Virus record (IMG/VR): IMGVR_UViG_3300020049_005154
Length of the DNA stretch: 20,000 nt
Strand: one strand, 5' to 3'
DNA from: an uncultured virus (IMG/VR IMGVR_UViG_3300020049_005154)
Lineage: Duplodnaviria; Heunggongvirae; Uroviricota; Caudoviricetes
The notes beneath the pieces were generated by a model that saw only the letters and a program-made list of their open reading frames with translations, had not been told where the DNA came from and did no database searches. This document shows, piece after piece, positions 829 through 19,629 of the stretch. The translations under genes were made by a program, and so were the position numbers. The stretch's first letter is position 1. Each line of letters opens with the position of its first letter.

Positions 829-2343
829 ATGCACACTATCCACATCTACAATAACAGATGTCAGTTTATAGATGCTGACCAAGTTAAATTCTTGACTGCG
901 TGGAAGCTATACCATGCAGGCATTACTCCGTATAAAGACAGACACTTTAGGGAAACTACTAACAGGAAGAATGAAGCTAGCGGAGACCCTAGGCGTATGC
1001 CGTTGACAGTAGAGCTAGTAACTCCTCCACCTATCTGCACCTTTGGTCTAGGTATGCTGCATGGTATTGTTACCAAGATACTTGGACCAAAGAATGTGAA
1101 GGTAATTGATAAGAGGTTGAAGCCTGCTAAGGTATACGATTGGGAATTCAACTTCCCTCATACGTTCTACCCTAAACAATCAGAGGCAGTTAACAGTTTC
1201 CTAAATTCATGGATGGGTAAAGGAGTACTACATTGCGCTTGTTCTTCTGGAAAGACCCCTATGGCTGGGGCTATTACTGCTACACTAGGGGTACCTACAG
1301 CTATCTTTGTAAATTCTGCACAATTACTTAGACAGCTTAGAAAAGAGTTTGAGAAGTTCTTTGAGACGGAGGTAGGTATCCTAGGTGATAGCGAGTACGA
1401 ATGGCAGCCTATTACTGTAGTGTCAGTAGACACCTTCATTGAGTATCTACATAACCCTATTGACACACCTAGAAATAAAGTAGCTAGGATGGTGCATGAG
1501 TTAACCAAGCTAGCTATACATGATGAATGTCATAGAGCTACGTCTGATACATGGAATGAGTGCGCTATGGCTCTAGAGTGCTACTACACATTAGGACTAA
1601 GTGCCACACCTACTAAGGGGTGTGCTGCTAGGGATAACAGGCTACTGTCCATGTGTGGGCATGTGCTAGCTAAGATTACAGATGAAGACTTGCAAGCAGT
1701 AGAGAGGAATGCACCTACCTATGTAATCTCTATTCCTTGTAGTTCTCCTAGACATCTGTTTGATAGCGATAAACCTAGCTGGATACTAGATAAGCCACTA
1801 CTCACTAACAACATTACTAGGAATGACATCATAGCGGAGGTAGCCAAGACATGCGAGAATGCTGGGCTACGTACACTAATCCCTGTTGATTTCTCTACTC
1901 ATGTGGATCAGATACAGGAAGCATTGAAGAAGTTTAGGGTGCGTAGTGTGGCAGTAACGGGGAAGATGAAAGTCATTCAAAGGAATGCCGTAATTCAGCA
2001 GCTTAAAGAGCTAGACATTTCTACTATCGTATCTACTAGGGTAATGGATACCGGCATTGATATACCTGAGCTAGCTGTAGTTATTGACGCCGGTAAGAAG
2101 TCTGATGCTGTTACTACAGAGCAGACTAAGGGGCGCATCAAGCGTAAGAAGCCAGGAGATATTTACAATGTAGGCTTCTACATTGTGATTGCTGATACTA
2201 CTCATGGTGCTCTGATTGGCAGGCACAAGAAGATTATCAAGACATTGCAGAATGATACTACCTGTACATTCCATACAGTGCAGTCTATAACAGAACTTAG
2301 ACAATTAATTTCAAATATCCTAGGAGTACATGCTAATGCCTGA
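829..2343 (+). CDS. Superfamily 2 DExH helicase (UvsW / T5 D10-like)
   Basis: Motif I CACSSGKT, motif II DECH, motif III SAT, motif V TGIDIP, motif VI QTKGRIKR; 504 aa. Confidence 0.9.
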   Translation: MHTIHIYNNRCQFIDADQVKFLTAWKLYHAGITPYKDRHFRETTNRKNEASGDPRRMPLTVELVTPPPICTFGLGMLHGIVTKILGPKNVKVIDKRLKPAKVYDWEFNFPHTFYPKQSEAVNSFLNSWMGKGVLHCACSSGKTPMAGAITATLGVPTAIFVNSAQLLRQLRKEFEKFFETEVGILGDSEYEWQPITVVSVDTFIEYLHNPIDTPRNKVARMVHELTKLAIHDECHRATSDTWNECAMALECYYTLGLSATPTKGCAARDNRLLSMCGHVLAKITDEDLQAVERNAPTYVISIPCSSPRHLFDSDKPSWILDKPLLTNNITRNDIIAEVAKTCENAGLRTLIPVDFSTHVDQIQEALKKFRVRSVAVTGKMKVIQRNAVIQQLKELDISTIVSTRVMDTGIDIPELAVVIDAGKKSDAVTTEQTKGRIKRKKPGDIYNVGFYIVIADTTHGALIGRHKKIIKTLQNDTTCTFHTVQSITELRQLISNILGVHANA

Positions 2344-2536
2344 AATTATCTGGGCAATTTCAACATTGGTAGTTCTAACATGGTGCGTACATGCTATCAT
2401 CTGCCACAATAAAACATTCAAACACGGCATGACTATCGTTAAGTGTTTAGAAGATAGAGTTAAGCATCTAGAAGACGCTAGGAGTGCAGAGATTAAGCAA
2501 AAGATAGAAGATTGGAAGACCTCTAAGGGGCTATAG
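2330..2536 (+). CDS. Small membrane-anchored hypothetical protein
   Basis: AGGAG upstream; hydrophobic N-terminus IIWAISTLVVLTWCVHAII followed by a charged helix. Confidence 0.6.
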   Translation: MLMPEIIWAISTLVVLTWCVHAIICHNKTFKHGMTIVKCLEDRVKHLEDARSAEIKQKIEDWKTSKGL

Positions 2537-2537
2537 C

Positions 2538-2753
2538 ATGAGCTATGATCCTACACCTTACTCATATAGCAGGCCCGGCGGTAAAGCTAAGTCTAGAAGT
2601 AAGCACATAAAGAATCGAGGAAAGAACTATGCCAGTAGGAACAAGTGGAAAGAAGAAGAAGAAGGCATCGAAGATTACCCTTGTGTTTACGGCGAGCCAA
2701 CAAGCATTCGACGAATACTCGAAGACGGTAGCAGAAACAGAGAAGGGAAGTAA
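2538..2753 (+). CDS. Possible small basic hypothetical protein (overlaps the next ORF)
   Basis: ATG 1 nt after the previous stop with AAGGGG upstream, but overlaps 2629..2922 by 125 nt. Confidence 0.3.
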   Translation: MSYDPTPYSYSRPGGKAKSRSKHIKNRGKNYASRNKWKEEEEGIEDYPCVYGEPTSIRRILEDGSRNREGK

Positions 2754-2922
2754 GAAGAAGAAGACTACAGTAATGTATATCCATACTGAGAATTTGTTTA
2801 GAGGGTATGTGCCCTCTGAATGCAAGACAGTGTTCATTCATCCAGTACCGCTGTGGGTATATTCTGAGAAGTTTCAAGCAAGGCTAACATCATTCCAGAT
2901 CAAAGGACAGCAACATGCTTAA
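2629..2922 (+). CDS. Lys-rich hypothetical protein
   Basis: GAGG RBS upstream; stop overlaps the start of the next gene; two GKKKK/SKKKK patches. Confidence 0.6.
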   Translation: MPVGTSGKKKKKASKITLVFTASQQAFDEYSKTVAETEKGSKKKKTTVMYIHTENLFRGYVPSECKTVFIHPVPLWVYSEKFQARLTSFQIKGQQHA

Positions 2923-3529
2923 GACCCCTGTATCTCGTGAAGCTAGGGTTTGTGAGAAGTGCAAGGGCTTCATGGCTAAGGGCGAGAAGTACTACACATG
3001 GCAAGTTAGAATCTCTCATGGGCATTCAGTAACACATAAGCGTTGCTTGAATTGCAGGCCACGGCCAAGCGAGATGGCTTCTGGCAGGGCAGCAGAGATT
3101 CTATCGGCAGTAGAGTCGGCAGAAGATAGCATTAGTAATTTGCGCACTGTTGATAGAGATAGCAGAGATGTTGCTGATGTTGAAAACATTCTTAGTGATC
3201 TGTATGATACACTAGAGGGCGTTAAGGATGAACTAGACGGCAACATCAGTAGCCTAGAAGATTCATTTCCTGGACATGCTAGGCTAGAAGATATGCAAGG
3301 TAAGTCTTCTCAGCTAGAAGAGATGATGAGCATAGTAGACTCAGCTAAGGATAACCTTCCTGAATATGTAGGGCTAGCAGTAGAGGAAGAAGAGCCTGAC
3401 CCTGACGACGAAGATGCCGAAGCAGAAGAGAAGGAGAAGATTGCGGAAGCTTGGATCGAAGCAGATGCACAATGGGAAGCTGTGCTTGATGCAGCACAAG
3501 AAGCAATCAGCGAGGTATGCGTACCTTGA
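2915..3529 (+). CDS. Zinc-finger plus acidic coiled-coil hypothetical protein
   Basis: CEKC...CLNC pair, then long acidic amphipathic helices and an EEEEPDPDDED tract; AAGGA RBS. Confidence 0.8.
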   Translation: MLKTPVSREARVCEKCKGFMAKGEKYYTWQVRISHGHSVTHKRCLNCRPRPSEMASGRAAEILSAVESAEDSISNLRTVDRDSRDVADVENILSDLYDTLEGVKDELDGNISSLEDSFPGHARLEDMQGKSSQLEEMMSIVDSAKDNLPEYVGLAVEEEEPDPDDEDAEAEEKEKIAEAWIEADAQWEAVLDAAQEAISEVCVP

Positions 3530-3693
3530 GCACGGCTGAATACCCTACAGGCAAATTTGTTATGCTGATACATCCTAAAGCTAGGACTGTACTGAGGGTA
3601 GCGTTTACACCAAAACCTTTCAGGTACAGAGACTTGCTTAAGAGGCGGGCATTGAACAAGATGGCAGCTAAGTCAAGGAGGCGCAACCGATGA
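3526..3693 (+). CDS. Small basic protein (55 aa, TTG start; alternative ATG at 3517), not in the ORF track
   Basis: Fills the gap exactly with TTGA and ATGA overlaps at the two ends; GAGG at 3512-3515; ends RRALNKMAAKSRRRNR. Confidence 0.7.
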   Translation: MSTAEYPTGKFVMLIHPKARTVLRVAFTPKPFRYRDLLKRRALNKMAAKSRRRNR

Positions 3694-4541
3694 ACCTACT
3701 AACTAAGTTAAGGTACAAGATAGGGCATGATAGATACTACTCCATAGCTAGGAAAGTCTATCAAGCCCTATCATTCACAGCAATAGGTAGAGGATTTACC
3801 TGCAACTGTTGCGGTAAGTCCTATAGAACTACATGGTTCAAGGCTAAACTATGCCCCGGTTGCGGCAGCTACCCTAGGCACAGGCTGCTAGTAGCCTACC
3901 TTGCTAGGTATGAAGGGCATGGCGTTAGGCACATCCTACATGTAGCGCCTGAACCCTTCTTAGCTAAGACAATGAAGAAGCTATTTCCTGATGCAGTGTA
4001 TGTGCCTATAGACTTGAACGCTAGTAAGGGTACAGTACAGGCCGATCTATGTAGGCTAGAATTCCTGGCATCAGAGACCTTTGATCTAGTTATCTGTATG
4101 CAGGTACTAGAGCATATACCTGATGACTACCATGCCATGTATGAGATAGGTAGACTGCTATCCCGTAGCGGTACGGCCATCATTCAAGTACCTATCGGTA
4201 ATGAATTCAAGGAAGACTTTAGTATTACTGACCCGTACCAAAGAGAGCTAGCATTCGGGCAGTGGGATCATGTACGAGTATACGATAGTATTACTCTGGC
4301 CCGTAGACTAGAACATACTGGATGGTTCGATGTAAGCTATCCTACCCATCGCGGCGATGATTGTATTGAAGGGTACATGACTTGTGAGCGTGAGAATCAT
4401 GTGCCTGAATTAGAATACTTACTTAGACTGTACAGAAAGTACAGCACCTTTGAGCATGGCAAGCCAGATAAGGGTAGGTCTAAACACTACTACTGGAATT
4501 GCCCAACTTGCCGTAGGCCAGTAGACTCGCCAATGAATTGA
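3690..4541 (+). CDS. Class I SAM-dependent methyltransferase (type 11-like) with N-terminal zinc ribbon
   Basis: CNCC...CPGCGSYPRHRL, ILHVAPE, FDLVICMQVLEHIPDD, IIQVP, FGQWDHVRVY; AAGGAGG RBS. Confidence 0.88.
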   Translation: MNLLTKLRYKIGHDRYYSIARKVYQALSFTAIGRGFTCNCCGKSYRTTWFKAKLCPGCGSYPRHRLLVAYLARYEGHGVRHILHVAPEPFLAKTMKKLFPDAVYVPIDLNASKGTVQADLCRLEFLASETFDLVICMQVLEHIPDDYHAMYEIGRLLSRSGTAIIQVPIGNEFKEDFSITDPYQRELAFGQWDHVRVYDSITLARRLEHTGWFDVSYPTHRGDDCIEGYMTCERENHVPELEYLLRLYRKYSTFEHGKPDKGRSKHYYWNCPTCRRPVDSPMN

Positions 4542-4549
4542 GGCTAGCG

Positions 4550-5536
4550 ATGGATGATGTAAGAGAGAAGATACGTAAGCTGCAAGCATTGGCAGATAAT
4601 ACAACTTTCCCTGCTGAGAGGAAGGTTGCGCTAGATAAGATCGCACAACTGAAGGCTGCTAATCCTACGGTCGATACTACACCTAAAAGTAAAGCTAAAC
4701 CGCGTGTTGATAACTACGCCTACAACGATTTTGGGTACGCCTCTTTCAGGGAAGACCTAGAACGAGAGCTTAAGCGGGCTAGGGCTAAAGTTGATGCAGA
4801 AAATGAACGTAGATATAAAGAAGCTCAGAGGGAGTACCAAAGACAAGCTGACAAGGAGAGGGCTGACAAGGAAAGATACGACCAAGCGCCTATTTCCATT
4901 ACAGGCTGGCAATGGAGTAAGGGAGTGCGGCCACCGTCTGACTACGTTCCGATCAGCTACTCCCACACACTAGATGAGTACAGATTTGTACATAAGTCTA
5001 AGTACAATAAAGCACATGAAAACAGGCCATATATTGCACCTACCTGGGGGCCGTGGGCTGAGGCTGCTAAAGAAACGCCTAAAGAAGAGCGCAAGGATAT
5101 GTGGATTAGCTATGAATTCTATAGAGACCACAAGAACTTAATACCTGCTGACTACTTCCCTGAATGGTATGACATACCTAAGAATGCTTGGGTGTTTGTA
5201 CCTAAAGAACGTAGAGGTATTAAGGGCGCTCCTATCAATGCCTTTGAAGCTACCTGGTTCCCGGACAGCATAGAGCCGCCCGATATTAGTATAACCAGAA
5301 ATGCTTACGAAGATGGCAAGAGAGCACCAGACGGGTACGAATATTACGAGTATGACGCGGCCAAGGAAATTGCTACATTCAGGCACAAGAGTAGGATGCC
5401 TAAGAAAGCACCAGAGCCAGCTAAGCCATATCAATCCTACACTAGCTACACTGGCAAATATACTGACGGCCCGGTATTTAATGTGGATATGCTAGATGAA
5501 ATGCTTAGAAACTTCGCTAAAGTGAATAAGCCATGA
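4550..5536 (+). CDS. Protein with DUF2786-like N-terminal helical hairpin, coiled coil and three internal ~37-aa repeats
   Basis: REKIRKLQALADNTTFPAERKVALDKIAQL resembles DUF2786; ATG 4550 has GAGG upstream (track start is TTG 4538). Confidence 0.75.
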   Translation: MDDVREKIRKLQALADNTTFPAERKVALDKIAQLKAANPTVDTTPKSKAKPRVDNYAYNDFGYASFREDLERELKRARAKVDAENERRYKEAQREYQRQADKERADKERYDQAPISITGWQWSKGVRPPSDYVPISYSHTLDEYRFVHKSKYNKAHENRPYIAPTWGPWAEAAKETPKEERKDMWISYEFYRDHKNLIPADYFPEWYDIPKNAWVFVPKERRGIKGAPINAFEATWFPDSIEPPDISITRNAYEDGKRAPDGYEYYEYDAAKEIATFRHKSRMPKKAPEPAKPYQSYTSYTGKYTDGPVFNVDMLDEMLRNFAKVNKP

Positions 5537-6264
5537 ACATAATCCCTAAAGAAGCAGTACTAGGATTTGCTTTCGATAAGGATATGTATATCCGGGACTC
5601 TAACAAAGAGTGGGATGTCTTTGTTACTGCTTACCCTCACGGCATAGATAGCTTCAAGGTACTGCTAGTTGATAGAGACCCAGACCTGCTTGAATACTTC
5701 CATGCCTATAACCTATGCAAGATGTTCTATAGGCTGCAAGAAGCAGATGATCCGGCTAACAAGTACATACCGACTAAGGTAAAGAACTTGTTTAGCAAGC
5801 ACATGAAACAATGGAGATTGCTTGGCGAGCTTCTTGCTACCAAAGGGCTCCCCGCTGCGGGATACCTTAAGGCACAGATTAAGTACCTACCTAAAGACAA
5901 GTGTAGACCTACTGCATTACTGTCTGCTAATGCCTTAGAGAGATGGGAAAGATACAAGAGAACTGAGCTAGCTAAGGTAGTACTAAGCAAGGATAAGGAA
6001 GAAGCACTACGTAAGCTAGCAACAGAAGAAGATGCTGACCGCAGTTATAGGTACTATGCCGGAGAGAGGTACTTCCTCTGGCTTAAGGGTATGGTCAAGG
6101 GCAACATGACAGATGAAGAGCTTATCTGGAATGAAGTCCTAGCTATCTCCCCCGATTACCTCATTACTCGTACAGAGTTTACAAGCAACTATGTTCCTGG
6201 AATCCATCCCCTATTAGACAGAAGGGTGAATGAGGCTATGATACGTGCAAGAGCCACTAAATAA
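5533..6264 (+). CDS. Hypothetical helical protein, possible helicase loader or initiator
   Basis: 243-aa ORF with ATGA coupling, overlapping the start of the SF4 helicase; function inferred from position only. Confidence 0.7.
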   Translation: MNIIPKEAVLGFAFDKDMYIRDSNKEWDVFVTAYPHGIDSFKVLLVDRDPDLLEYFHAYNLCKMFYRLQEADDPANKYIPTKVKNLFSKHMKQWRLLGELLATKGLPAAGYLKAQIKYLPKDKCRPTALLSANALERWERYKRTELAKVVLSKDKEEALRKLATEEDADRSYRYYAGERYFLWLKGMVKGNMTDEELIWNEVLAISPDYLITRTEFTSNYVPGIHPLLDRRVNEAMIRARATK

Positions 6265-7582
6265 ACCTAGCGTAGTAGAAGGCACCTATGGGGCTATGAT
6301 GCTTACGCTAGATATGCAGCGTAAGATATTAGCCCTGATATGTAGAAGGCCAGACTTCCTCCCTAGATTTGCCTCCATCGTTAAGCCTGCTTACTTCTAC
6401 CCTTCAGAGATTAGGGTTGACATATGCAGACTATGTATTGAATACTTCAACAAGTATAAAACAGGGCCAACACCTGATGCAGTAGCTCAAATGATTACCA
6501 CTATGGTAGTCAATGACTCGGAGAAGTTTAAGATTCATCAAGCTTACTTCGATGAACTTAACCTGCTGGTAAGCTACTCACTGATTGAAGAGCAATTCAT
6601 TACGGATACAGCTATCACCTTTGCTACATCCTATGAACTATACATGGCAGGTACTAAGCTCAGAGATGTACTGATGAAAGGAGACTTGGCAGGGTGCAGG
6701 AAGGTACTGCCCATGTTCCAAGAAGCTTCAAGGATTGGGCAGGACAAGAAAGATATTGGGTCTAGGTTTGCAGATGGTGCATGGATTGACACTCCCCCTA
6801 GGCATGGTATTCTTCCCACCATGCTCCCTACTCTTGATGGCTACCTATGCGGCGGGCTAGCAAGAGGAGAAATGGGAGTCATAGCAGCACCAATGAAAAG
6901 GTTCAAATCTGGTGCTCTGATTAACATAGCTATTGCTGCTATGATGTATGCCGGGTACACAGTAGTACACCTTACAATGGAGCTAACCATACCAGAAGTA
7001 GAGGATAGGTATGCTAGGGCTCTGTTGCGTAAGTTTAGAGGGGTGCATACTGCTGATGATATGCGGCAAGGGCTTAATGATCTACTGGCTAAGCATAAGG
7101 TAGACTTGATTACTAAACACTGGTCCATTGGTACAGCTAAGCCAGAACAAATCAAGGACTACCTGCGCAACCTAGTAAGCATTGGTGCTATCGTTCCATC
7201 AGAGGGTAAGCTGCTAATCATTTGCGATTACCCTGGCTGTATGTACGAGGACAGAGGCAAAGGTCAGAATAGAAGCACCAATATACAGGATAACTATAGA
7301 GCTATGATTCAGATAGCTCAAGAGTTTAACTGCCCTGTATGGTGCGCAGCACAGATGAACAACGATGGCTTCAGGAAAGAAGTTACCGACCAACAGGACC
7401 TAGCTTGGTGTAAGGCCATAGCTGCCGATGCTCATGTGATCCTAACACTATGCCAAACTAAGGATGAGTTTGAAAGAAAAGAACTACGTATCTACACAGC
7501 AGTAGTTAGAGCCGGTAAGATGTATCAGATAGTTAAGATGATGTGCGACCCTGAAACTACGTGGACATGGTTTGAAGCATGA
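6245..7582 (+). CDS. Replicative SF4 DNA helicase (DnaB / T4 gp41-like)
   Basis: LDGYLCGGLARGEMGVIAA, Walker A variant APMKRFKS, H1a HLTMEL, H2 ICDY, H3 VWCAAQMN; helical N-terminal domain; GTG start. Confidence 0.88.
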   Translation: MQEPLNKPSVVEGTYGAMMLTLDMQRKILALICRRPDFLPRFASIVKPAYFYPSEIRVDICRLCIEYFNKYKTGPTPDAVAQMITTMVVNDSEKFKIHQAYFDELNLLVSYSLIEEQFITDTAITFATSYELYMAGTKLRDVLMKGDLAGCRKVLPMFQEASRIGQDKKDIGSRFADGAWIDTPPRHGILPTMLPTLDGYLCGGLARGEMGVIAAPMKRFKSGALINIAIAAMMYAGYTVVHLTMELTIPEVEDRYARALLRKFRGVHTADDMRQGLNDLLAKHKVDLITKHWSIGTAKPEQIKDYLRNLVSIGAIVPSEGKLLIICDYPGCMYEDRGKGQNRSTNIQDNYRAMIQIAQEFNCPVWCAAQMNNDGFRKEVTDQQDLAWCKAIAADAHVILTLCQTKDEFERKELRIYTAVVRAGKMYQIVKMMCDPETTWTWFEA

Positions 7583-11144: not shown

Positions 11145-13827
11145 AATAGTAGCCCCTGATTTCTCTATACTGAAACAGCCTATAGAAGCTTGTGCTAAAT
11201 GCGGTATCTGCCAGCAATGCAGAAGTCCTTACATGCTAGGCAGAGGTAAGTGGAGCAAGCCTAAGCTAATGATTATCTCTGAAGCACCAGGAGAACAGGA
11301 AGACTTTGCCGATATGGCATTGATCGGTCCTGCTGGTGCTCTGCTTGATAAGATGCTTACATGTTTGCAGATAGATAAGACAGACATCTACTATAGCCAA
11401 GCTGTACGGGGACGACCGCCCGGCAATAAGATGTATGATAAGTACATTGGCTACTGTTCCCCCTACATCCGCAAGGAGATAGAGCTAGTACAGCCTACAG
11501 TTATCATTACCCTAGGCAACAGTGCTCTTAAGTCTCTCACTGGTGAAGGTAGTATCACTATCAATAGGGGTAGCATCAAGAAGCTAAACGACATTCCTAT
11601 TGTCCCTACCTATAGCCCTTCTAAGTATCTGAGAAGTAGCGATCAGAATGACTATGATCTTATGCTTCAGGACATTAAGAAGGCATGGGACTTAGCCAAT
11701 GGTGCAGCAGAACCTACTAAGATGCCTGTCAACTATAGGATTGTACGTAACCTAGAACAGTTGATAGAGATGTACAATGAGTGTATGGCTGCACCTATTC
11801 TATCATGCGATATTGAAACCTCTGGCCTTAGCCCTCATAGCAATACAGCTAAGGTAGTGTGCATACAATTCTCCGCCACCCCCTACACTGGATGGCTAGT
11901 ACCTATTCAACATGCCGAATGCTTTGATCTACCTAACTGTGTAGCTTGTGTTAAGGACATCCTTACTAAGCATACAGGGCTAATTGGGCACCATCTTAAG
12001 TTCGATTGGAAGTACATTGAACATGTGCTTAGGTTTAGGCCAGCACTACCTGTAGCTGATACTATGGTAATGCACCACTTGCTCTATGAAGAAGAGAGCA
12101 AGATTGGTATGCTTAAGCTAAAGTCAATGGCCCAGAGGTACACAGACTTAGGCAACTATGCGCCCGATGACTCGGATGAATTCTTCGCATCGTTGCCTAC
12201 TATGCCTCTGGACCAGCTAGTTAGCTATGCTTGCTCTGACGTTGATACAGTGCAGAGGGTCTACCTTCAGCTTAAGCCACTGATCGATACTGAAGGTAAT
12301 CTAGCACAAGCACTTAGGTACGAGATGATTAAGCAGATGCTCTGTGCAGATATGGAACGCAGAGGCGCTTGCATCAATTGGGAATACCATGCCTACTTGA
12401 TGGAAGAATTCCCCAAGCGTATATCTAAAGAGCTAGACATTGTACGCTCCTTCTCAGAAGTACTAGACGTAGAGGATCAACTAGTAGAGGAGTATGTAGC
12501 TAAGCATTTAGCAAATAAGCACAAGACTATCAAGACAGAGATAACCCAAGAGAGGCTTGATGCTTGGGCTGTTAAGGCTAAGGAGAAGGCTATCGCTGAA
12601 ATCAGGTTCAATCCTAAATCCCCAGACCAGTTACGTAAGCTAATGGTGGATAGGCTAGGACTACCTGAAATTGTATTCACTGATTCAGGAGAGCCTTCTT
12701 GTGGCAAGGATGCAAGGGGCGCTTGGCTCATGGCACTGAAGGGTAAAGGCATCAAGGCCGACATCATTAATGCTGTAGCTGAATACCTGATAGCCCACTC
12801 TACCTATAGCTTCGTTAAGCAGTATGGCGAGCATAAAGCAGACGACGGTAAGCTACACTGTAACTACAATACCTGTACCGCAGTAACCTTTAGACTGAGT
12901 TCCAGTGGAGTAAATCTGCAAAATTTGCCTAGAGATGATGAGTCTCAGGAAAAGAAGGAACAAGGTCTTGTAGGTAAAGGAGACATCAAGAGGCTCTTCA
13001 TTGTACCACATCAGGGGTGGAAGCTGTATGAGCCAGATGGTAAGCAGATTGAGCTAGTCATTGCAGGGTTGCTATCCCAAGACCCTGAGATGCTACATGC
13101 TTTCAGTAATGGTATTGACCTGCACTATATGCTGGCATCTAAGGTGTATGGCAAGCCAGCCTGTGAAGTATCTGACAAGGAGAGAACTGAAGCTAAGAAG
13201 GCTAACTTTGGTGCTCTCTATGGTATCAGTCCGGGACAGCTATCTCTGAAGAACAAGATTCCTCTTGACACCGCTAAGGCTTTCATTGAAGAGTTCTGGC
13301 GGACGTTCAAGGGATTCCAACGCTGGGTGCTGGAAACACAGACGTTCGCCCGCCTGAATGGCTACGTTGACTGCCCGTTGGGGCACAGGCGCCACCTTCC
13401 CGCCGCACAGTCGGCAGACCAGGAGGCTAGATCAGAAGCACTACGCCAAGCAGTCAATACCCCTATCCAGAATACTGCTAGTAACATCATCATCTATGCT
13501 GCTTCAGTAGCTAACAATATCTTCAGGCAGCTAAAGTTACAGGCATACATCTTTGGGCAGGTACATGACTCTGTTTGGGTAGCTTCACCAGAGGAAGAAG
13601 AAGCACTAGCACTAGGTATAGTAATGTACTGTATTGAAAACATGCCGTTTGATTTCTTACATGGCAGAGATGAAAGATACCCTGTACCTCTAAGGATTCA
13701 AGCGGGAATCAAATCAGGAATCAACCTATGTGACACAGCTAAGACTACTGTTAAACTCACACCAGAAATAGCGGCTATCTGCCGACCACACCTAGACCTA
13801 TTCCTCCAAGGAAAAATCCTTACATGA
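11137..13827 (+). CDS. Family A DNA polymerase with N-terminal UDG family-4-like domain and 3'-5' exonuclease (SPO1-type architecture)
   Basis: UDG-like: CAKC, SEAPG, GPAG.LL, RPPGN, EIELVQP..IITLG. Exo: DIET, HLKFD, YACSD. Pol: RLSS..NLQN, D..QIEL, RTEAKKANFGALYG, VHDS. GGAGG RBS. Confidence 0.95.
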   Translation: MNEIVAPDFSILKQPIEACAKCGICQQCRSPYMLGRGKWSKPKLMIISEAPGEQEDFADMALIGPAGALLDKMLTCLQIDKTDIYYSQAVRGRPPGNKMYDKYIGYCSPYIRKEIELVQPTVIITLGNSALKSLTGEGSITINRGSIKKLNDIPIVPTYSPSKYLRSSDQNDYDLMLQDIKKAWDLANGAAEPTKMPVNYRIVRNLEQLIEMYNECMAAPILSCDIETSGLSPHSNTAKVVCIQFSATPYTGWLVPIQHAECFDLPNCVACVKDILTKHTGLIGHHLKFDWKYIEHVLRFRPALPVADTMVMHHLLYEEESKIGMLKLKSMAQRYTDLGNYAPDDSDEFFASLPTMPLDQLVSYACSDVDTVQRVYLQLKPLIDTEGNLAQALRYEMIKQMLCADMERRGACINWEYHAYLMEEFPKRISKELDIVRSFSEVLDVEDQLVEEYVAKHLANKHKTIKTEITQERLDAWAVKAKEKAIAEIRFNPKSPDQLRKLMVDRLGLPEIVFTDSGEPSCGKDARGAWLMALKGKGIKADIINAVAEYLIAHSTYSFVKQYGEHKADDGKLHCNYNTCTAVTFRLSSSGVNLQNLPRDDESQEKKEQGLVGKGDIKRLFIVPHQGWKLYEPDGKQIELVIAGLLSQDPEMLHAFSNGIDLHYMLASKVYGKPACEVSDKERTEAKKANFGALYGISPGQLSLKNKIPLDTAKAFIEEFWRTFKGFQRWVLETQTFARLNGYVDCPLGHRRHLPAAQSADQEARSEALRQAVNTPIQNTASNIIIYAASVANNIFRQLKLQAYIFGQVHDSVWVASPEEEEALALGIVMYCIENMPFDFLHGRDERYPVPLRIQAGIKSGINLCDTAKTTVKLTPEIAAICRPHLDLFLQGKILT

Positions 13828-15038
13828 CTTTCGTTGACACCCGAGAAATCTCAGCAGCGCGCGCAGCAGAAATGAAGGCCCAGGATAAGGAAGCCAGCAA
13901 GGCTTACTATCAAGGTGGAGATTACCTTCAGAAGTTTGAAATGCCAAAGGATATGGCCCCAGGTACATATCGCGTACTGCGGTTTATCGTTCCTGACTAT
14001 GTTACTCCGCAGAACTTGACTGCCTTTAACCATATGGGTATTACCTACTGCTTCGCTTCAGCAGCTACAGTAGGCTGGGGCAAGATGGCTAACTACCGTG
14101 CGTATGTTGACCCTTCCCCCTTTGGTCAGCCTAACCCTTATGGTGAATACTCCCACTGGATTACTACTCAGGGCACTAAGACAGATCGTGAACGGCTTGC
14201 AGAGATTAGGTTTAATCGCTCCCACCATGCTTTCGTTCTGGATATTACAGACCAGAATAGCTTTAACCTTGGTCTACAGATGTGGAGCAATATCCCCTTC
14301 TCTGTAGTTGAAGCCCTTACTCAGCTTGCCGAACAGCGTAACCCTATGGACCAGAGCAAGCACGCCTACCCCTGCTTCTGGCACCCAGAACAGGGCTTCC
14401 CTATCCTTGTGCGTCGCTTTGCTAGCGATGGCGGCAAGACTAAGTATGAGATTAAGCCATACATGGCTGGCAATGAGGCGGGGCAGATCGTGCTCCAGTG
14501 TGGCCCTATCCCTAATGCTGTAGAAGTTATGAAGCAGGCCAACGAGAATGACATTGGCGGCTTCATCTATCTTGAAACCGAAGAGACTATTAGGGAAATG
14601 CTCTCCGGTAAGGAAGTTGATGCTAAGGTTAAGCGTACCCGTCGTGAACTTAGGGATAAGATGCTTGGCCGTGATCCTGTGTGCAGGTTCAAGGACTTCA
14701 CTAAGAAGGGTGGCGACGGTATCCCTGATGCTGCTAAGGCTGGGTCTGTTGAGTTCAATCGCCCTCCCGTTACTACGCCTAATACCGCCCCAGCACCCTT
14801 TGGGCTACCTGCTACTGCCGCCCCTCCCGCCGTCCCGTTCGTTAGTACTGTCCCGGCACGGGAGGAGATGCCACACATGGGGGCTCCGGCCCCCGCTGCT
14901 GCCTTCGTTGCGCCTCCGATCGCCGTTCCTCCTCCTGTCGCTGCTGCCCCTGCCATTCAGCCTCCGGGGACGGTTGCCGCTGCTGCTAGTACTCCCCCTC
15001 CCGCTGGTATGCCGCCCTGGCTCCAGAAGCAAGGATAA
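13824..15038 (+). CDS. Probable single-stranded DNA-binding protein (T4 gp32-like) with Pro/Ala-rich tail
   Basis: Sits right after the polymerase; VLRFI and HPEQGFPILVRR...GKTKYEIKP resemble gp32-like OB-fold phage SSBs. Confidence 0.65.
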   Translation: MTFVDTREISAARAAEMKAQDKEASKAYYQGGDYLQKFEMPKDMAPGTYRVLRFIVPDYVTPQNLTAFNHMGITYCFASAATVGWGKMANYRAYVDPSPFGQPNPYGEYSHWITTQGTKTDRERLAEIRFNRSHHAFVLDITDQNSFNLGLQMWSNIPFSVVEALTQLAEQRNPMDQSKHAYPCFWHPEQGFPILVRRFASDGGKTKYEIKPYMAGNEAGQIVLQCGPIPNAVEVMKQANENDIGGFIYLETEETIREMLSGKEVDAKVKRTRRELRDKMLGRDPVCRFKDFTKKGGDGIPDAAKAGSVEFNRPPVTTPNTAPAPFGLPATAAPPAVPFVSTVPAREEMPHMGAPAPAAAFVAPPIAVPPPVAAAPAIQPPGTVAAAASTPPPAGMPPWLQKQG

Positions 15039-15043
15039 CTACT

Positions 15044-15352
15044 ATGCCTACGCCAGAACAAGAAACTAAAGAACCTATAGGACACTACACCTATATATAC
15101 TCATGTAGCAACTGTGATATGATATTTCAGAACAAGATTCCAAAGGGTACTACTCTACCACGTAACGATGAGTGTACTAGCTGCGGATGCAAGACAGCCA
15201 ATCCGTATAAGGGTAGCGATAGGCTAGTTAAAGCGTATGAAGGTATACTGCCTGCTATAAAGAAGCGTAGTCTGCTTGACGAATTCAGAGAAGAACGCGA
15301 CATGCTCGGTAAACCTATAGCTAGACTAGCGATAACAGGACTGAAAGGATAA
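15044..15352 (+). CDS. Zinc-ribbon protein (FmdB-like)
   Basis: YIYSCSNCDMIF...CTSCG; AAGGA RBS. Confidence 0.75.
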   Translation: MPTPEQETKEPIGHYTYIYSCSNCDMIFQNKIPKGTTLPRNDECTSCGCKTANPYKGSDRLVKAYEGILPAIKKRSLLDEFREERDMLGKPIARLAITGLKG

Positions 15353-15354
15353 AC

Positions 15355-15380
15355 TAAGGGGGCTAGCAATAGCCCCCTTA
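15355..15380. terminator. Perfect 11-bp hairpin TAAGGGGGCTA-GCAA-TAGCCCCCTTA (terminator or RNA-stabilising stem)
   Basis: Intergenic perfect inverted repeat with GNRA tetraloop; no real U-tract follows. Confidence 0.65.
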
Positions 15381-15389
15381 ATACTAACT

Positions 15390-15656
15390 ATGGCTAAAGC
15401 TTTAGTGAAAGAACTTAACTGGCAAGAGTTTAAAGACCTCGACGATGGCACAATACAGTACTTACTGGCTATCAATTTAGGTAACTTTACTATGGCTGTA
15501 TACATAAGCGAAGCTGATGCAGCAGGACGCTACATTGTGCATGGGCCTAATTTTAAAACATCCTACTGGCCTTCAGTGGACCACGCTAAAGCCTACGTAA
15601 AACGCACCCTACGCATGGTATCTAGAGAAGTTACAAGGACTAAACTAAATGGCTAA
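15390..15656 (+). CDS. Small hypothetical protein
   Basis: 88-aa ORF filling the gap; overlaps the recA start. Confidence 0.7.
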   Translation: MAKALVKELNWQEFKDLDDGTIQYLLAINLGNFTMAVYISEADAAGRYIVHGPNFKTSYWPSVDHAKAYVKRTLRMVSREVTRTKLNG

Positions 15657-16623
15657 ACGTGAATACTACATGACTGCGGACCAAGTTATACCGCAGCACA
15701 TTGATCGTATCCCTAGCGGTAGCCGTATCCTAGATAGCATCCTAGGTGGCGGCTGGGCTAGAGGTAGGCACCACATCATAGCAGGACAACAGGCGGCAGG
15801 CAAGACTACCCTAGCTTTGATGGCTGCTATCTCATGTCAGAACATGGGGCTTAGGGTAGCCTACATAGACGCAGAACATGCACTAGATAGGACTTATGCT
15901 AAGTTTCTAGGCGTTGACCTTACTAGAATGCTGTACCCTGAGCTAACTACTGGCGATGATGCCAAGGAAGCTTTGGTTACATACCTAGATGACAGGAACC
16001 CATTTAGCCTTATCGTCATTGACTCTATTGCTGCATTGTGCCCTGAAGGTATGTACGATGGTACCAATGAATCCCTAGGCGGCAGAGCTAGACTTGTTAA
16101 CGATATGTTCATAGTCTGCAATGCTAGGCTGGAGCTAGCTAACTGTGCAGTTATCTGGATCAATCAGCTTAGGGATACCATTGGCGGATACGGCAGCGGT
16201 AAGATCATGCCGGGCGGTAATGCCCCTCAATTCTACGCCACCACCATTATGCAGATCAACTCCCCTCCGCTTAAAGATAATTCTGATAAGGTTATCGGTA
16301 GGAACATTACTCCCAAGATTACCAAGAACAAGCTTGGCCCTACTTGCTATGATCCTGAGCCAATCCCCTACGTATTCGGTAAGGGCGTTGACACTTCTAG
16401 GGAGCTACTTACCCTAGCTTACAGGGCTGGGCTTATTACCATTGGCGGTACTCGGTATTCGTTCAAAGATCAAGTCATAGCTAACGGTAAAGAAAACACC
16501 ATTGCATTACTTGATCGCGACGAAACTTTAAGGGTTGCTATCATTACTGCCTTGGATGGTAAGCCACCTGCTGCTAAGTATGTTCCTCCTCCTCCACCTT
16601 CCTTTGAATTCAAGATAGGATAG
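15649..16623 (+). CDS. recA: RecA/UvsX-family recombinase
   Basis: Walker A GQQAAGKTT, YIDAEHALD, IVIDSIAAL, INQLR, GGNAPQFYA, KNKLG. Confidence 0.95.
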   Translation: MAKREYYMTADQVIPQHIDRIPSGSRILDSILGGGWARGRHHIIAGQQAAGKTTLALMAAISCQNMGLRVAYIDAEHALDRTYAKFLGVDLTRMLYPELTTGDDAKEALVTYLDDRNPFSLIVIDSIAALCPEGMYDGTNESLGGRARLVNDMFIVCNARLELANCAVIWINQLRDTIGGYGSGKIMPGGNAPQFYATTIMQINSPPLKDNSDKVIGRNITPKITKNKLGPTCYDPEPIPYVFGKGVDTSRELLTLAYRAGLITIGGTRYSFKDQVIANGKENTIALLDRDETLRVAIITALDGKPPAAKYVPPPPPSFEFKIG

Positions 16624-16626
16624 TCT

Positions 16627-19600
16627 ATGTATCTGTTCTCCGTAGTAGCTGACTTGCATTTGGATGACTGGCCTAGGTGGGCGCACAAGACAGATGAAGG
16701 TAGTAACACCAGGCTAGAGGCACAGATCAAAGTAGTAAAGGATATGCTCTCCCTTAGTCAGCATACCCCCAAGCGTTTAGTTATTGCCGGAGATACGGCT
16801 AACCCTAGAAAGGAATCACTACCCCTAGCTGTATCTAATGGTATTACTAACCTGATGAATTGGTGCTCTGCTAACATGGAGAGCACCTATGTCATTGAAG
16901 GCAACCATGATTACCCTTGGCGCACACCGGATAAGGGCAAGCTATCCTCTGTTAGTATCTGCAAGAGAGATAATGTGCATGTGGTAGAGGGATGCAAGAT
17001 CGTTAAGATTCCTCTCATTATGCCGGGCAGCTTCCTTGATCTGTGCTTGCTATCCTACCAGCCTACTGAAGAAGCTCTAGCTGCTGCTATCAACTACTTC
17101 TTCACCAACACTGGCCCCGATAGGGTGCTCATTGCCCATCAACCCTTGATGGAAGGTATGCTTGATAATGGTGGGCTAGCTATTAAAGGCAATAGCCCTG
17201 ATACCTTTCAGCCCGAGAAGTGGAAGCTAATCCTCTTAGGCGATTACCATAGGCCACAGAAGATTAGAAGCAATATGTTCTACGTCGGCGCTCCGTATGA
17301 GCTAAACAGAGGCGATGCCCGACATGACGGCCCTAGAGGCTACGTAGAAGTACACTTCGACCCTATCACCAATACCGTACAGCATAAGTACATAGCTTCT
17401 CAGCACACCAATATGAAGTTTGTTACAATCGACGTAACGGACGATACCGATGTTACTAAGAACATTGCGCTACATAAAGAAGACTTTGTTACGTTTAGTG
17501 TGCTACCTGCTGCTGCTAGTAGGTTCGCGCAGATTGAAGCTATCGCCAGAGCCAACTATACCTTCCCGCCGGAAGTCCTCAATCAAGGCAGGCTTAAAGC
17601 TTCCGACCTAACAGACGATGCTAGATATGATGGCATTACAGCCAATACCGATCCTATTGATGTTGTCAAGGCGTACATTGCTAGGAGGGGATGGGAGCCT
17701 CTTAATCTAGAGTACCTATTCCAGACCTGCAAGTATTGCCTTGATAGGATTCCAGTTACTAACGCTGGCATCTATAGAGGCTTCATTGTCTTTAAGCAGC
17801 TAGACATGATTAACTTCATGTCTCATAGAAATACCTCCGTTAAGCTAGACAACATAGGCTTAGTGCTACTTGACGGTAAGAACGGTGCCGGTAAGTCTTC
17901 TATCTTTGAAGGCATCTACGTTACCTTATTCGGTAAGACTATGCGTGAGCTTCCTGTTAAGAAGGTGCGCAATAGATTTGTTGATGAAGACTGCGTACTT
18001 AAGCTTACCCTATCCACTGAGCATTCAGAGATTAGGATTGAGCGTACCTTCCCTTTCAAGGGATCGGAACAGGTACGCATATACCGTAATGGTGTGGAAG
18101 AGCCAGTATTCAAAGACTCTGCACAAAAGATATACGAGATTACTGGTATCTCAGAGACCTACTTTAAGGCTGCCGGTATCTTGTCGGCTAATATCCTATC
18201 TAGGTTTATGGCTGCCAGTACCAGCGAGCGTCAACGTATCATTCAGGAAATGATTGATACCGAGCCATATGATCTAGCATTTAAGGTAGCTAGCGAACAG
18301 CTTAACAGTATTGACGCTAACATCAGAGACCTTAGCTCCCTATCTGATAGGGCTCTAGGAGCTAAGGAGCAAGCAGAGAGAGCTATTGCCCAGCTTACTG
18401 CTGAGAGAGACATCTTTGAGCTAAGGACCAAGCAAGCTAAGGCTGAGCTAGGGGGTAGGATAGCTAGCGTGCAGGAAAAGGTTAATGCACTACAGGACCA
18501 GCTTAACCTTAAAAATGCTGCTATAGCTGCAATGGTTATACCTACCATGAATGTACCTGCTGAGGCTCTACAGTACGAGGCTCAGGCAGCTATGTTACAA
18601 TCAGAGATTAACACTAGGCACCATCAACTAGGCGGGTACTCTGCCGACCTAGCTAGGGCTCAGGCGCTTAAGGAGAAGATGCGACAGTATGAGTCAGGCA
18701 AGAGCAAGTGCCCTACCTGCTTGCAGAGCATCGGGCTAGAACACATCAATAGCTGCATTGCTGCCGCTGACGTTGACGGCAGGGATGCTGCCGAAATGAA
18801 GACGAAGCTTAACGATGAAATCTTTGCCTTCAATCTCCAGATCAAAGAACTGACGGATAAGGCTCGGCAACTGCGGGCACAGAACGATCTTAACTACCAG
18901 CGTGCGAACCAGGATTACCAGAGCGTGTACAACGAGGCCAGGACCGTCTCCGTTGCCCTTCAGGTAGCTCAGGCTGAGATTGCCGCTCTGAGGAACGAAC
19001 AAGACAAGGTGCAGTCTCAGAGTACCAACTATGACGTGTCGATTGAGCGAGAGCGGAAGCGCGTAGAGGAAAACACCGCGATCTACCAGCAACGGAAGAC
19101 CGAGTTAGAGAGCATATCGGGTAGCCGCCCCCTCATGGCTGCCGCCCATAACATATTCTCCTCTACCGGAGTCAAGAACTTTCTTTTGGATACGATCACC
19201 CCAGCGATTTGCCTTGAAGCGATGCGCTGCTTAGAGCTAGTAGCGCCGGGGCAGTACTCCATTACTTCTGCCGTCAAGAGCACAGCCGTACAGGACAAGC
19301 TGACCTTCGCCGTGGACAACAAGCGGGGCTCAGATGATCCACGCGGCAACTCCGATGGCGAGAAGAACATCGTTGACCTATGCACCTTATGGGCGATCAA
19401 CCGCGTGGCCGTGCGGTGGAACATCCTTGACTTCGATGAACCCTTCTCGGCCTTCGACGACACGGTTACACCTAGGGCATTCAGGCTGCTTGAATCGGCA
19501 GCTAACGAAGGGAGGAGCATCATATGTACTACCCATCGTGACGATCTAAAGAACTTATTTCCGCAACGCTGGCTGGTTGAGAAGACTGAAGTTAACGGTA

Positions 19601-19629
19601 TCGAGACAAGCATTCTTCACGTAGGCTAA
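16627..19629 (+). CDS. Fused SbcD (Mre11/gp47) nuclease and SbcC (Rad50/gp46) ABC-ATPase
   Basis: Phosphoesterase motifs ADLH, AGD, GNHD, AHQ, GDYH; then Walker A GKNGAGKSS, coiled coil with CPTC hook, signature NSDGE, Walker B DFDEP, H-loop TTH, all in one 1000-aa frame. Confidence 0.93.
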   Translation: MYLFSVVADLHLDDWPRWAHKTDEGSNTRLEAQIKVVKDMLSLSQHTPKRLVIAGDTANPRKESLPLAVSNGITNLMNWCSANMESTYVIEGNHDYPWRTPDKGKLSSVSICKRDNVHVVEGCKIVKIPLIMPGSFLDLCLLSYQPTEEALAAAINYFFTNTGPDRVLIAHQPLMEGMLDNGGLAIKGNSPDTFQPEKWKLILLGDYHRPQKIRSNMFYVGAPYELNRGDARHDGPRGYVEVHFDPITNTVQHKYIASQHTNMKFVTIDVTDDTDVTKNIALHKEDFVTFSVLPAAASRFAQIEAIARANYTFPPEVLNQGRLKASDLTDDARYDGITANTDPIDVVKAYIARRGWEPLNLEYLFQTCKYCLDRIPVTNAGIYRGFIVFKQLDMINFMSHRNTSVKLDNIGLVLLDGKNGAGKSSIFEGIYVTLFGKTMRELPVKKVRNRFVDEDCVLKLTLSTEHSEIRIERTFPFKGSEQVRIYRNGVEEPVFKDSAQKIYEITGISETYFKAAGILSANILSRFMAASTSERQRIIQEMIDTEPYDLAFKVASEQLNSIDANIRDLSSLSDRALGAKEQAERAIAQLTAERDIFELRTKQAKAELGGRIASVQEKVNALQDQLNLKNAAIAAMVIPTMNVPAEALQYEAQAAMLQSEINTRHHQLGGYSADLARAQALKEKMRQYESGKSKCPTCLQSIGLEHINSCIAAADVDGRDAAEMKTKLNDEIFAFNLQIKELTDKARQLRAQNDLNYQRANQDYQSVYNEARTVSVALQVAQAEIAALRNEQDKVQSQSTNYDVSIERERKRVEENTAIYQQRKTELESISGSRPLMAAAHNIFSSTGVKNFLLDTITPAICLEAMRCLELVAPGQYSITSAVKSTAVQDKLTFAVDNKRGSDDPRGNSDGEKNIVDLCTLWAINRVAVRWNILDFDEPFSAFDDTVTPRAFRLLESAANEGRSIICTTHRDDLKNLFPQRWLVEKTEVNGIETSILHVG

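Follow-up and report, generated by a model that had tools for sequence, protein, structure and literature searches.

The abundance of CTAG in the 20,000-base stretch of uncultured phage DNA analyzed here (the window) is not specific to CTAG: three dinucleotide biases, for CT, TA, and AG, account for all of it. Taken as a whole, the observations are probably best explained by CTAG being a passive by-product of a neighboring-base-pair signature. Since dinucleotide preference explains CTAG and restriction sites are avoided, neither a special CTAG function nor a protective DNA chemistry is needed. The sequence-only reading of this DNA had put forward three causes, namely a base modification shielding the genome, selection on CTAG or TAG as a target, and an unusual mutational or compositional bias; the first two fared poorly, and the third is viable and preferred. 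The compositional segments and annotated genes of the window are as follows.

829..19150, no strand: homogeneous block, GC about 45%, 8.6 CTAG per kb (composition profile, Markov models, shuffle, and delta*)
90..810, plus strand: GC-rich island, GC 65-69%, CpG O/E about 1.4, TA nearly absent, 0-1 CTAG
19200..20000, no strand: right flank, intermediate in composition, with GC 53-58%, CpG O/E about 1.0, and a delta* to the block of 0.16
829..2343, plus strand: SF2 (ResIII/Helicase_C) DNA helicase (Pfam, PHROG), 20 CTAG
3690..4541, plus strand: class I SAM methyltransferase-domain protein with zinc-ribbon-like ends (family searches)
6245..7582, plus strand: DnaB-like replicative helicase (Pfam, PHROG)
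7797..8237, plus strand: RNase HI (Pfam, PHROG)
8480..9460, plus strand: DnaG-type primase (Pfam, PHROG)
11137..13827, plus strand: DNA polymerase combining a family-4 UDG-like domain, a 3'-5' exonuclease, and a family A polymerase in a single protein
13824..15038, plus strand: 404-aa protein with no family assigned, located where SP-10 has its SSB
15649..16623, plus strand: RecA/UvsX-like recombinase (Pfam, PHROG)
16627..19629, plus strand: SbcD-SbcC fusion nuclease of 1000 aa (Pfam, PHROG)

CTAG counts against composition, dinucleotide, and codon nulls

Relative to mononucleotide composition, CTAG is far more abundant than chance allows: the window holds 165 copies, compared to 76.4 predicted (O/E 2.16). 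The sequence-only reading's tally of 20 CTAG in the helicase gene at 829-2343 proved exact (about 5.8 are expected), and the dense CTAG that it saw in most genes was borne out in 14 of the 17 called genes, which exceed the base-composition level of approximately 3.8 per kb. The genes that do not are 2629-2922 (0), 13824-15038 (1.6 per kb), and 15390-15656 (3.7 per kb). The second of these has a Pro/Ala-rich C-terminal tail that causes both a local GC rise and the low CTAG count, and it was therefore rejected as a foreign insertion. The other traits listed from the sequence alone also held up. CpG is scarce, with an O/E of 0.65 for the whole window and 0.3-0.8 in the per-kb profile of the block. 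Homopolymers of A/T are few, with 25 A runs of at least 4 bases (106 expected), 8 such T runs (49 expected), no A or T run of more than 5 bases, and O/E values of 0.16-0.18 for AAAA and TTTT in the window; C runs are at expectation (38 vs 37) and G runs are slightly low (33 vs 56). Frequent codons include CTA (39% of Leu), AGR (65% of Arg), and AAG (78% of Lys), and AGCT and GTAC are frequent tetramers (O/E 2.26 and 1.37, respectively).

The CTAG excess is reproduced by its component dinucleotides: the product of the odds ratios for CT (1.41), TA (1.21), and AG (1.24) is 2.12, compared to the CTAG O/E of 2.16. A Markov-1 (dinucleotide) model over the two strands predicts 309.4 copies where 320 are observed (z 0.6), a Markov-2 (trinucleotide) model predicts 168.2 for the observed 165 (z -0.36), and shuffles that keep protein, codon usage, and dinucleotides (n=200) give 148.9±5.3 for the observed 147 (z -0.36). 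When only codons are kept in the shuffle, CTAG is raised 1.49-fold, as are GCTA (1.59), TAGC (1.56), TAGG (1.64), GTAG (1.52), CCTA (1.36), and CTAC (1.37), all NCTA and TAGN tetramers being up by a similar factor. Thus, the CTAG-specific enrichment proposed by the sequence-only reading vanishes after dinucleotide and codon correction, the very outcome on which that reading was itself to be given up. Since the three favored steps CT, TA, and AG compose CTAG, the tetramer is common, and the same applies to GCTA, TAGC, AGCT, CCTA, and TAGG.

Dinucleotide signature and extent of the block

In the block, GC, CT/AG, and TA are high, while CG, AA/TT, and AC/GT are low (TA 1.21, CT/AG 1.35, CpG 0.56, AAAA O/E 0.17), such that each base has a preferred successor: C after G, T after C, A after T, and G after A. 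The bias peaks at codon junctions, where it is nearly strand-symmetric, with odds of 0.46 for AA, 0.47 for TT, 1.60 for CT, 1.46 for AG, 1.46 for GC, 1.42 for TA, and 0.63 for CG. The same biases occur at codon positions 1-2, 2-3, and 3-1, as well as in intergenic DNA; TA at positions 1-2 is the exception, because stop codons limit it there. The 1,630 bp of intergenic DNA in the block show CT/AG at 1.28, GC at 1.38, TA at 1.16, CG at 0.70, and AA/TT at 0.85, along with 13 CTAG compared to 6.0 expected. Dinucleotide odds taken outside codons also predict relative synonymous codon usage (RSCU) with r = 0.66-0.67, compared to 0.22 for base composition, and correctly name the most frequent codon for 13 of 18 families; the odd codon usage is therefore largely predicted by the dinucleotide signature. 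The codon-junction peak, the near strand symmetry, the intergenic recurrence, and the prediction of codon usage together show that the bias works on double-stranded DNA and not via proteins or translation. One component goes further: TTTT stays low in a dinucleotide-keeping shuffle (4 vs 16.1±3.6, z -3.4), so some further factor acts on T runs.

Quarters of the block differ from the whole by a delta* of just 0.024-0.039, and coding and noncoding DNA share the biases, making this a Karlin-type genome signature. Such signatures were reportedly described by Burge, Campbell and Karlin in 1992 and by Karlin et al. in 1997, and CTAG and TA are said to be under-represented in bacteria and phages. Passages of PMC3308326 review both subjects. 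The signature here is likewise strand-symmetric, homogeneous, and coding-independent, with CTAG set by lower-order composition; in contrast, TA (1.21) and CTAG (O/E 2.2) deviate in the opposite direction.

The interval 829-19629, which had been treated as a unit in the sequence-only reading, is a real compositional block, poor in A/T runs and 6-bp palindromes, but its right edge lies closer to 19150-19200, and the SbcD-SbcC gene turns GC- and CpG-rich from about 19200. On the left, the island at 90..810 lacks the block signature (delta* 0.37), contains three small overlapping ORFs, and has a copy of the 9-bp direct repeat CCAGGATAA on either side (44-52 and 821-829). The island may be host- or phage-derived. 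A tblastn search with an island ORF against cultured phages found no match, and in the atlas an island ORF reached only sub-threshold phage hypotheticals.

Reference loci, host clues, and origin of the signature

Compared to 10 reference loci, the signature falls outside all of those sampled. The two nearest loci are from Herelleviridae, with delta* values of 0.11 for Lactobacillus phage 3-521 and 0.14 for Staphylococcus phage K; both display a weaker signature of the same kind (CpG 0.40-0.48, TA 1.02-1.06, CT/AG 1.23-1.26, CTAG O/E 1.09-1.33). Their stretches carry the same kinds of genes as the window (helicase, DnaB, SbcD/SbcC, and primase), and the 3-521 stretch ends within the beginning of a DNA polymerase gene. 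However, they differ in GC (32-37%), in having unbiased AA/TT and GC dinucleotides, and in encoding SbcD and SbcC as separate genes; SbcCD identity is only 23-25% to 3-521 and Staphylococcus Herelleviridae (phage K not being among the matches listed). SP-10, YungSlug, and LysYB1, which are Bacillus and Lysinibacillus Herelleviridae with a module of like type, are without the signature (TA 0.77-0.85, CTAG O/E 0.61-0.86), indicating that replication-module type alone does not set it. Depletion of AA/TT together with A/T runs is found in none of the 10 loci, where AAAA O/E is 0.60-2.13, compared to 0.17 in the block; AA/TT exceeds 1 in seven of them and is 0.90-0.98 in the other three, whereas it is depleted here.

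Two polymerase relatives (P0002 and P0003) at 64-65% identity are known as proteins only, and searching viral contigs with P0002 or the three-sequence alignment yielded no match. The polymerase search reached one weak IMG/VR locus and four metagenome-contig loci at about 25% identity, and the two ends of the window had no exact match in viral contigs. Nothing relevant on TA over-representation in phages came from a literature search.

The signature most likely originates in a neighbor-dependent mutation/repair spectrum of the phage lineage's own machinery, for which the PolA with its UDG-like domain, RecA, and SbcCD would be candidates, and selection against A/T tracts would act alongside it. 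The signature may represent an extreme case of a tendency present in some phages with a like replication module. The block could also be a mosaic piece carrying the signature of a donor lineage.

It is rather unlikely that the signature and codon usage mirror those of a host with equal biases, CTAG being common in both. Passages of PMC3308326 give the drift of phage signatures toward that of the host as a general principle, and also state that autonomously replicating phages retain distinct signatures; the phage analyzed here encodes its own replication/repair set. The two nearest signatures are those of phages of low-GC Firmicutes, and the block is very homogeneous, as if long resident in one regime, but the GC- and CpG-rich island, the sole strongly different DNA in the window, is nothing like the block. 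No host clue emerged from a tRNA search of the window (none found), from a search of species genomes (no close genome or prophage relatives), or from the RNase H atlas neighbors, which are scattered over Spirochaetota, Pseudomonadota, and Bacillota.

Quite improbable is the view that the signature marks a chemical or physical peculiarity of the lineage's DNA, or selection on DNA mechanics, rather than mere mutational drift. The traits in question are the favored TA and CT/AG steps, the halving of AA/TT at codon junctions, the lack of A or T runs above 5 bases, and the loss of T runs beyond dinucleotide prediction. A chemical candidate is replacement of thymidine by hmU or a hypermodified T, as known in the distant relatives SPO1 and SP-10, making consecutive T:A pairs costly; in the mechanical version, selection would favor TA/CTAG steps for their flexibility and disfavor A-tracts for their rigidity.

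Restriction-site avoidance, DNA modification, and selected words

Nearly half of the 6-bp palindromes (31 of 64) are absent from the window, compared to 7.3 expected, and palindromic sites number 186 vs 297 under a Markov-3 model (0.63 of expectation; 297-339 across nulls), with palindromes depleted relative to non-palindromes (Mann-Whitney p ~1e-12). Within genes, shuffles that keep dinucleotides, codons, and protein (n=200) give 269.3±12.8 palindromic sites where 168 are observed, and 32 palindromes are absent where 8.9±2.2 are expected, the maximum in 200 shuffles being 17. For instance, RGATCY does not occur (14.5 expected), CTGCAG, CAGCTG, and GATATC are among the avoided words, and ACTAGT, though it contains CTAG, is avoided (1 site vs 6.9 expected). 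Cores of CTAG, AGCT, GTAC, and TTAA escape the depletion, with GCTAGC (17 sites) and CCTAGG (11 sites) at expectation. Since the sites avoided most strongly all combine A/T with G/C, selection against restriction sites is not relaxed. Short palindromes are reportedly avoided in phage genomes, as Sharp in 1986 and Rocha et al. in 2001 are said to have found. Restriction-site avoidance in phage genomes is also the subject of PMC4687349, and the palindrome depletion here is the same, with nothing essential differing. The avoidance is not exceptional, as ratios in the left arm of lambda (0.55) and in two metagenomic phages (0.63 and 0.68) are similar. The loss of palindromes is thus ordinary restriction avoidance, which argues against a blanket protective modification, although it could partly reflect inherited history or enzymes insensitive to a modification.

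Protective hypermodification is exemplified by glucosyl-hmC in T4, hmU in SPO1, modified T in SP-10, and the Z-genome phages. It is very improbable that a non-canonical or hypermodified base likewise shields the DNA analyzed here, with CTAG/TA contexts tolerated or favored and A/T runs avoided through properties of that base. SPO1 and SP-10, both phages with modified thymidine, have replication modules distantly related to the PolA-centered one found here; however, SP-10 itself lacks the signature. T runs are depleted beyond dinucleotide prediction and the polymerase carries a UDG-like domain, but 6-bp palindromes comprising all four bases are strongly depleted, so that restriction sites are still purged. 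Unlike in the hypermodified phages, the search for modification genes, which the sequence-only reading had suggested, found no DNA-modification family among the window proteins in Pfam, PHROG, and NCBIfam: there were no matches to a thymidylate-synthase-like hydroxymethylase, PurZ, DpdA/QueC-type proteins, a glycosyltransferase, or a DNA methyltransferase. The window is about a quarter of the genome (20 kb of ~76 kb), and modification genes could lie in the rest.

The methyltransferase-domain protein at 3690..4541 was considered as a DNA methyltransferase and rejected: its weak matches are solely to small-molecule-type class I families, no DNA-methyltransferase family was matched, a PDB sequence search gave no match, and neither the DPPY/NPPY nor the PCQ motif of DNA methyltransferases was seen. 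A PDB sequence search with the nucleotidyltransferase of the window was also without a match.

A role for CTAG or TAG as a word selected for recognition by a phage protein that binds, modifies, or packages DNA is hardly credible. The raw density is high at 8.6 per kb, and GCTAGC and CCTAGG are common, but these two hexamers are merely at expectation, ACTAGT is avoided, and CTAG shows no excess over di- or trinucleotide expectation, with neighboring tetramers that lack CTAG raised equally. The spacing of CTAG is random: the gaps have a CV of 1.00, a KS comparison with an exponential gives p = 0.51, and 500-bp bins yield an index of dispersion of 1.29. The reading frames of CTAG are simply CTA-G (93) and nCT-AGn (54).

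Next to no credence is given to a thermophile-infecting virus with the CTAG-centered, CpG-poor composition of thermophilic archaea. Codon preferences for CTA, AGG, AAG, and GTA presumably resemble those of Thermoproteota. Passages of a bioRxiv report (10.64898/2026.06.16.732181) describe CTAG-centered hexamers as enriched in thermophilic archaea, and abundant CTAG hexamers such as GCTAGC are common to both; passages of PMC3308326 give TA as normal in Sulfolobus and Pyrobaculum and CG as low in some thermophilic archaea. Unlike the archaeal CTAG-hexamer family, this phage has mesophile-like proteins, bacterial-type genes, and a CTAG excess that is fully dinucleotide-derived. Its replication genes are all of bacterial type (RecA and not RadA, DnaB, a DnaG-type primase, and RNase HI), and the hosts of the nearest phages are Firmicutes and Actinobacteria. 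The IVYWREL value of 0.381 corresponds to about 22 C by a formula said to be that of Zeldovich et al. from 2007, and charged-minus-polar is 6.7%, which is mesophile-like. A thermophilic or archaeal host was therefore rejected on protein composition and gene content. Reassignment of the TAG stop was also rejected, as all 17 genes are free of internal TAG and 15 of the 17 stops are TGA or TAA; reading TAG as Q changes called genes only by extending them upstream or by read-through, in each case at a terminal TAG (4499, 10915, 11053, and RecA-SbcDC in-frame), the remaining extra ORFs being antisense or out of frame.

Restriction sites in this DNA face ordinary strong selection, and nothing eliminates CTAG in particular. 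The host would be without a restriction system that cuts CTAG or a repair bias that depletes it, which would leave CTAG at the level that dinucleotides dictate. A phage CTAG excess of more than twofold is thus by itself no sign of DNA modification or of a CTAG-reading protein, and the decisive control for a word excess is a shuffle that keeps dinucleotides and codons. Likewise, unusual codon usage (CTA, AGR, AAG, and GCT) can follow from a DNA-level bias and not from translational selection. Avoidance of A/T runs would be of wider interest if its cause is chemical or mechanical. This analysis documents an uncultured phage lineage with a signature beyond the 10 sampled reference loci, and that signature could mark the lineage for binning or host linking.

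Order at which the CTAG excess arises

The window holds 165 CTAG where base composition predicts 76.4 (O/E 2.16), with exactly 20 against ~5.8 expected in the helicase gene at 829-2343 and a density above the base-composition level in 14 of 17 genes. The over-representation described in the sequence-only reading is thus confirmed, as are its scarce CpG (O/E 0.65), few A/T homopolymers (AAAA O/E 0.18, TTTT 0.16; A runs of at least 4, 25 vs 106 expected; T runs, 8 vs 49; none longer than five) and frequent CTA, AGR and AAG codons (39% of Leu, 65% of Arg and 78% of Lys). GCT, CCT and GTA account for 48% of Ala, 52% of Pro and 45% of Val codons, respectively; C runs are as expected (38 vs 37) and G runs mildly low (33 vs 56).

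The odds ratios of CT (1.41), TA (1.21) and AG (1.24) multiply to 2.12, close to the observed 2.16. CTA/TAG stands at 1.04 relative to a dinucleotide model, and CTAG itself is as predicted on two strands under Markov-1 (320 vs 309.4, z 0.6) and under Markov-2 (165 vs 168.2, z -0.36). When synonymous codons were shuffled with proteins and codon usage kept, the excess remained (147 vs 98.9, z 7.5), and neighbouring words were raised alike (GCTA 1.59, TAGC 1.56, TAGG 1.64, GTAG 1.52, CCTA 1.36, CTAC 1.37, CTAT 1.36, ATAG 1.42). Under a stricter null, in which synonymous swaps also preserved every dinucleotide count (200 shuffles, preservation verified), it disappeared (147 vs 148.9±5.3). Loss of the excess after dinucleotide and codon correction had been named beforehand as the outcome that would refute a special role for CTAG, and that role is therefore not supported: the excess comes entirely from the dinucleotide level.

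The proposal of CTAG or TAG as a selected target fares no better. The association of C before TA with G after TA, expected under CTAG-specific selection, is absent, and no departure from random spacing was found (CV 1.00, KS p 0.51). Apart from one at a stop codon, all CTAG within genes fall in the CTA|G (93) or nCT|AGn (54) frame; reading TAG as sense improved no gene. CTAG is selected neither for nor against.

A double-strand dinucleotide signature

Symmetrised odds are high for GC (1.27), CT/AG (1.32) and TA (1.19), and low for CG (0.65), AA/TT (0.84) and AC/GT (0.86). The bias peaks at the codon junction, the site of weakest protein constraint, where it is nearly strand-symmetric (AA 0.46, TT 0.47, CT 1.60, AG 1.46, GC 1.46, TA 1.42, CG 0.63). 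Inside the compositionally homogeneous block from 829 to ~19150, intergenic DNA (1,630 bp) has similar odds (CT/AG 1.28, GC 1.38, TA 1.16, CG 0.70, AA/TT 0.85) and contains 13 CTAG vs 6.0 expected. Relative synonymous codon usage correlates with dinucleotide odds from junctions only or intergenic DNA only (r = 0.66-0.67; base composition, 0.22), and in 13 of 18 families these odds pick out the most used codon. The codon usage thus follows from the DNA-level signature and does not cause it. AA/TT bias mostly accounts for the A/T-run depletion: in the dinucleotide-preserving shuffle AAAA stands at 22 vs 29.7 (z -1.8), with T runs still depleted (4 vs 16.1, z -3.4). CTAG richness is therefore a side effect of a genome signature seated in the dinucleotides of double-stranded DNA, and the sequence-only reading's third alternative, a mutational or compositional bias, is retained.

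Ten reference phage stretches span 0.52-1.06 for TA, 0.07-1.33 for CTAG O/E and 0.60-2.13 for AAAA O/E; the block lies outside all three ranges (1.21, 2.2 and 0.17). By signature distance (delta*), the nearest are Lactobacillus phage 3-521 (0.11) and Staphylococcus phage K (0.14), both Herelleviridae, which share with the block low CpG (0.40-0.48), TA of at least 1.0 and CT/AG of ~1.25, whereas the Bacillus/Lysinibacillus Herelleviridae SP-10, YungSlug and LysYB1 do not share its signature. In the stretches of phage K (60001-98000) and 3-521 (80158-99278), TA is 1.02-1.06 and CTAG O/E 1.09-1.33; since CTAG is there at or above base-composition expectation, its rarity in phages is not universal.

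Gene content and mosaic structure

The substantial ORFs, all on the + strand, together make up a phage module for DNA replication and recombination.

Features of the window
64-285, 272-721, 719-820: three small overlapping ORFs of the GC-rich island
829-2343, +: SF2 helicase
3690-4541, +: class I SAM methyltransferase-domain protein
4538-5536, +: DUF2786 protein
6245-7582, +: DnaB-like helicase
7797-8237, +: RNase HI
8480-9460, +: DnaG-type primase
10172-10870, +: nucleotidyltransferase-like protein
11137-13827, +: polymerase (family-4 UDG-like domain, 3'-5' exonuclease, family A polymerase)
13824-15038, +: 404-aa protein, no family match
15649-16623, +: RecA/UvsX-like recombinase
16627-19629, +: SbcD-SbcC fusion, 1000 aa

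Gene content and order resemble those of the SP-10, YungSlug and phage K replication regions. The best cultured matches of the polymerase and DnaB are Bacillus and Lysinibacillus Herelleviridae (27-31% identity); SbcCD shows 22-25% identity to Staphylococcus, Lactobacillus and Bacillus Herelleviridae, and RecA 36.6% to Mycobacterium phages. Judged by these protein comparisons, the closest cultured phages are still distant. An identical polymerase is recorded on contigs of up to 76,193 bases, and two relatives (64-65% identity) come from contigs 49 and 73 kb long; the source is therefore an uncultured tailed phage of ~75 kb.

SbcD (metallophosphoesterase) and SbcC (SMC-like ATPase) form a single ORF here, whereas SP-10, YungSlug, phage K, 3-521 and LysYB1 encode them separately, in neighbouring genes. 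The 404-aa protein, between polymerase and RecA, occupies the slot of SP-10's single-strand DNA-binding protein; the GC rise at 14700-15000 stems only from its Pro/Ala-rich C-terminal tail of ~100 residues. The polymerase N-terminal domain (11137-11700), a putative glycosylase, scores 93-97 bits against family-4 uracil-DNA glycosylase and UdgX-type models, under curated cut-offs of 125-250. The methyltransferase-domain protein was rejected as a DNA methyltransferase, matching only small-molecule-type families, weakly.

The 18.3-kb core contains neither TATAAT (the -10 consensus) nor its complement (expected on two strands: 17.7 under Markov-1, 4.4 under Markov-3), and sigma-70-like sites are not enriched in 829-19150 (22 vs 29.1±5.5 in shuffles). 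A strong 13-pair hairpin at 15353-15382, between two small genes, is not followed by a T-tract on the coding strand, and the + strand of the window yielded no canonical terminator of the T-tract type.

The block is very homogeneous (quarter-to-whole delta* 0.024-0.039). The island at ~90-810 differs (GC 65-69%, CpG O/E ~1.4, TA nearly none, delta* 0.37 to the block) and lies between two direct copies of the 9-bp sequence CCAGGATAA (44-52 and 821-829). No match to the island's 149-aa ORF turned up among cultured phages, and the island resembles a recent insertion (a 'moron' cassette) that does not yet carry the block's signature. A third copy of the repeat lies at 13880 (chance expectation, 0.18 copies per window). 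From ~19200, inside the end of sbcC, GC is 53-58%, CpG O/E ~1.0 and delta* to the block 0.16; the shift spans the last ~450 bases of sbcC, extends downstream (19150-20000) and may mark where recombination joined the block to a genome part of different composition.

Restriction-site avoidance and possible sources of the signature

Of the 64 six-base palindromes, 829-19629 lacks 31 (~7.3 expected, Markov-3), and palindromic sites total 186 vs 297-339 expected (palindromes vs non-palindromes, p about 1e-12). Against the dinucleotide-preserving shuffle, genes alone contain 168 sites vs 269.3±12.8 (minimum 240) and lack 32 palindromes vs 8.9±2.2 (maximum 17). Missing words of highest expectation include GATATC, CTGCAG, CAGCTG, ATGCAT, GCATGC, AGATCT, TGATCA and AGGCCT; RGATCY occurs 0 times vs 14.5, and GGNNCC 21 vs 46. 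CTAG-core hexamers are at expectation for GCTAGC (17 sites) and CCTAGG (11), lowish for TCTAGA (5) and avoided for ACTAGT (1 vs 6.9). Ten 18.8-kb control windows (loci L001, L003 and L004, too short, were excluded) gave palindrome ratios of 0.55-0.92, compared with 0.63 here; two metagenomic phages (0.63 and 0.68) and the left arm of lambda (0.55) avoid palindromes just as strongly. The phage DNA is under restriction-avoidance selection, and the palindrome depletion is an ordinary mark of that pressure.

Among other sources of the signature, mirroring of host composition is unlikely. A base modification shielding the DNA, also put forward from sequence alone, is improbable: purging continues at sites that contain all four bases, which argues against it, and no DNA-modification enzyme family was matched among the proteins of the 20-kb window (about a quarter of the genome). 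A CTAG-reading protein is very improbable, given no excess beyond dinucleotides. By the IVYWREL formula, the window's proteins look mesophilic (0.381), and its genes are of bacterial type; a thermophile-type signature is accordingly just as improbable, and a link to thermophilic archaea, for which a preprint reports CTAG-centred enrichment (10.64898/2026.06.16.732181; see also review PMC3308326), was rejected.

The phenomenon is of a known kind, and this is an unusual example. The dinucleotide signature would probably arise from neighbour-dependent mutation and repair in a phage lineage that handles its own DNA replication and repair, to which selection against A/T tracts may add, and CTAG would persist because the host has neither CTAG-specific restriction nor CTAG-depleting repair.
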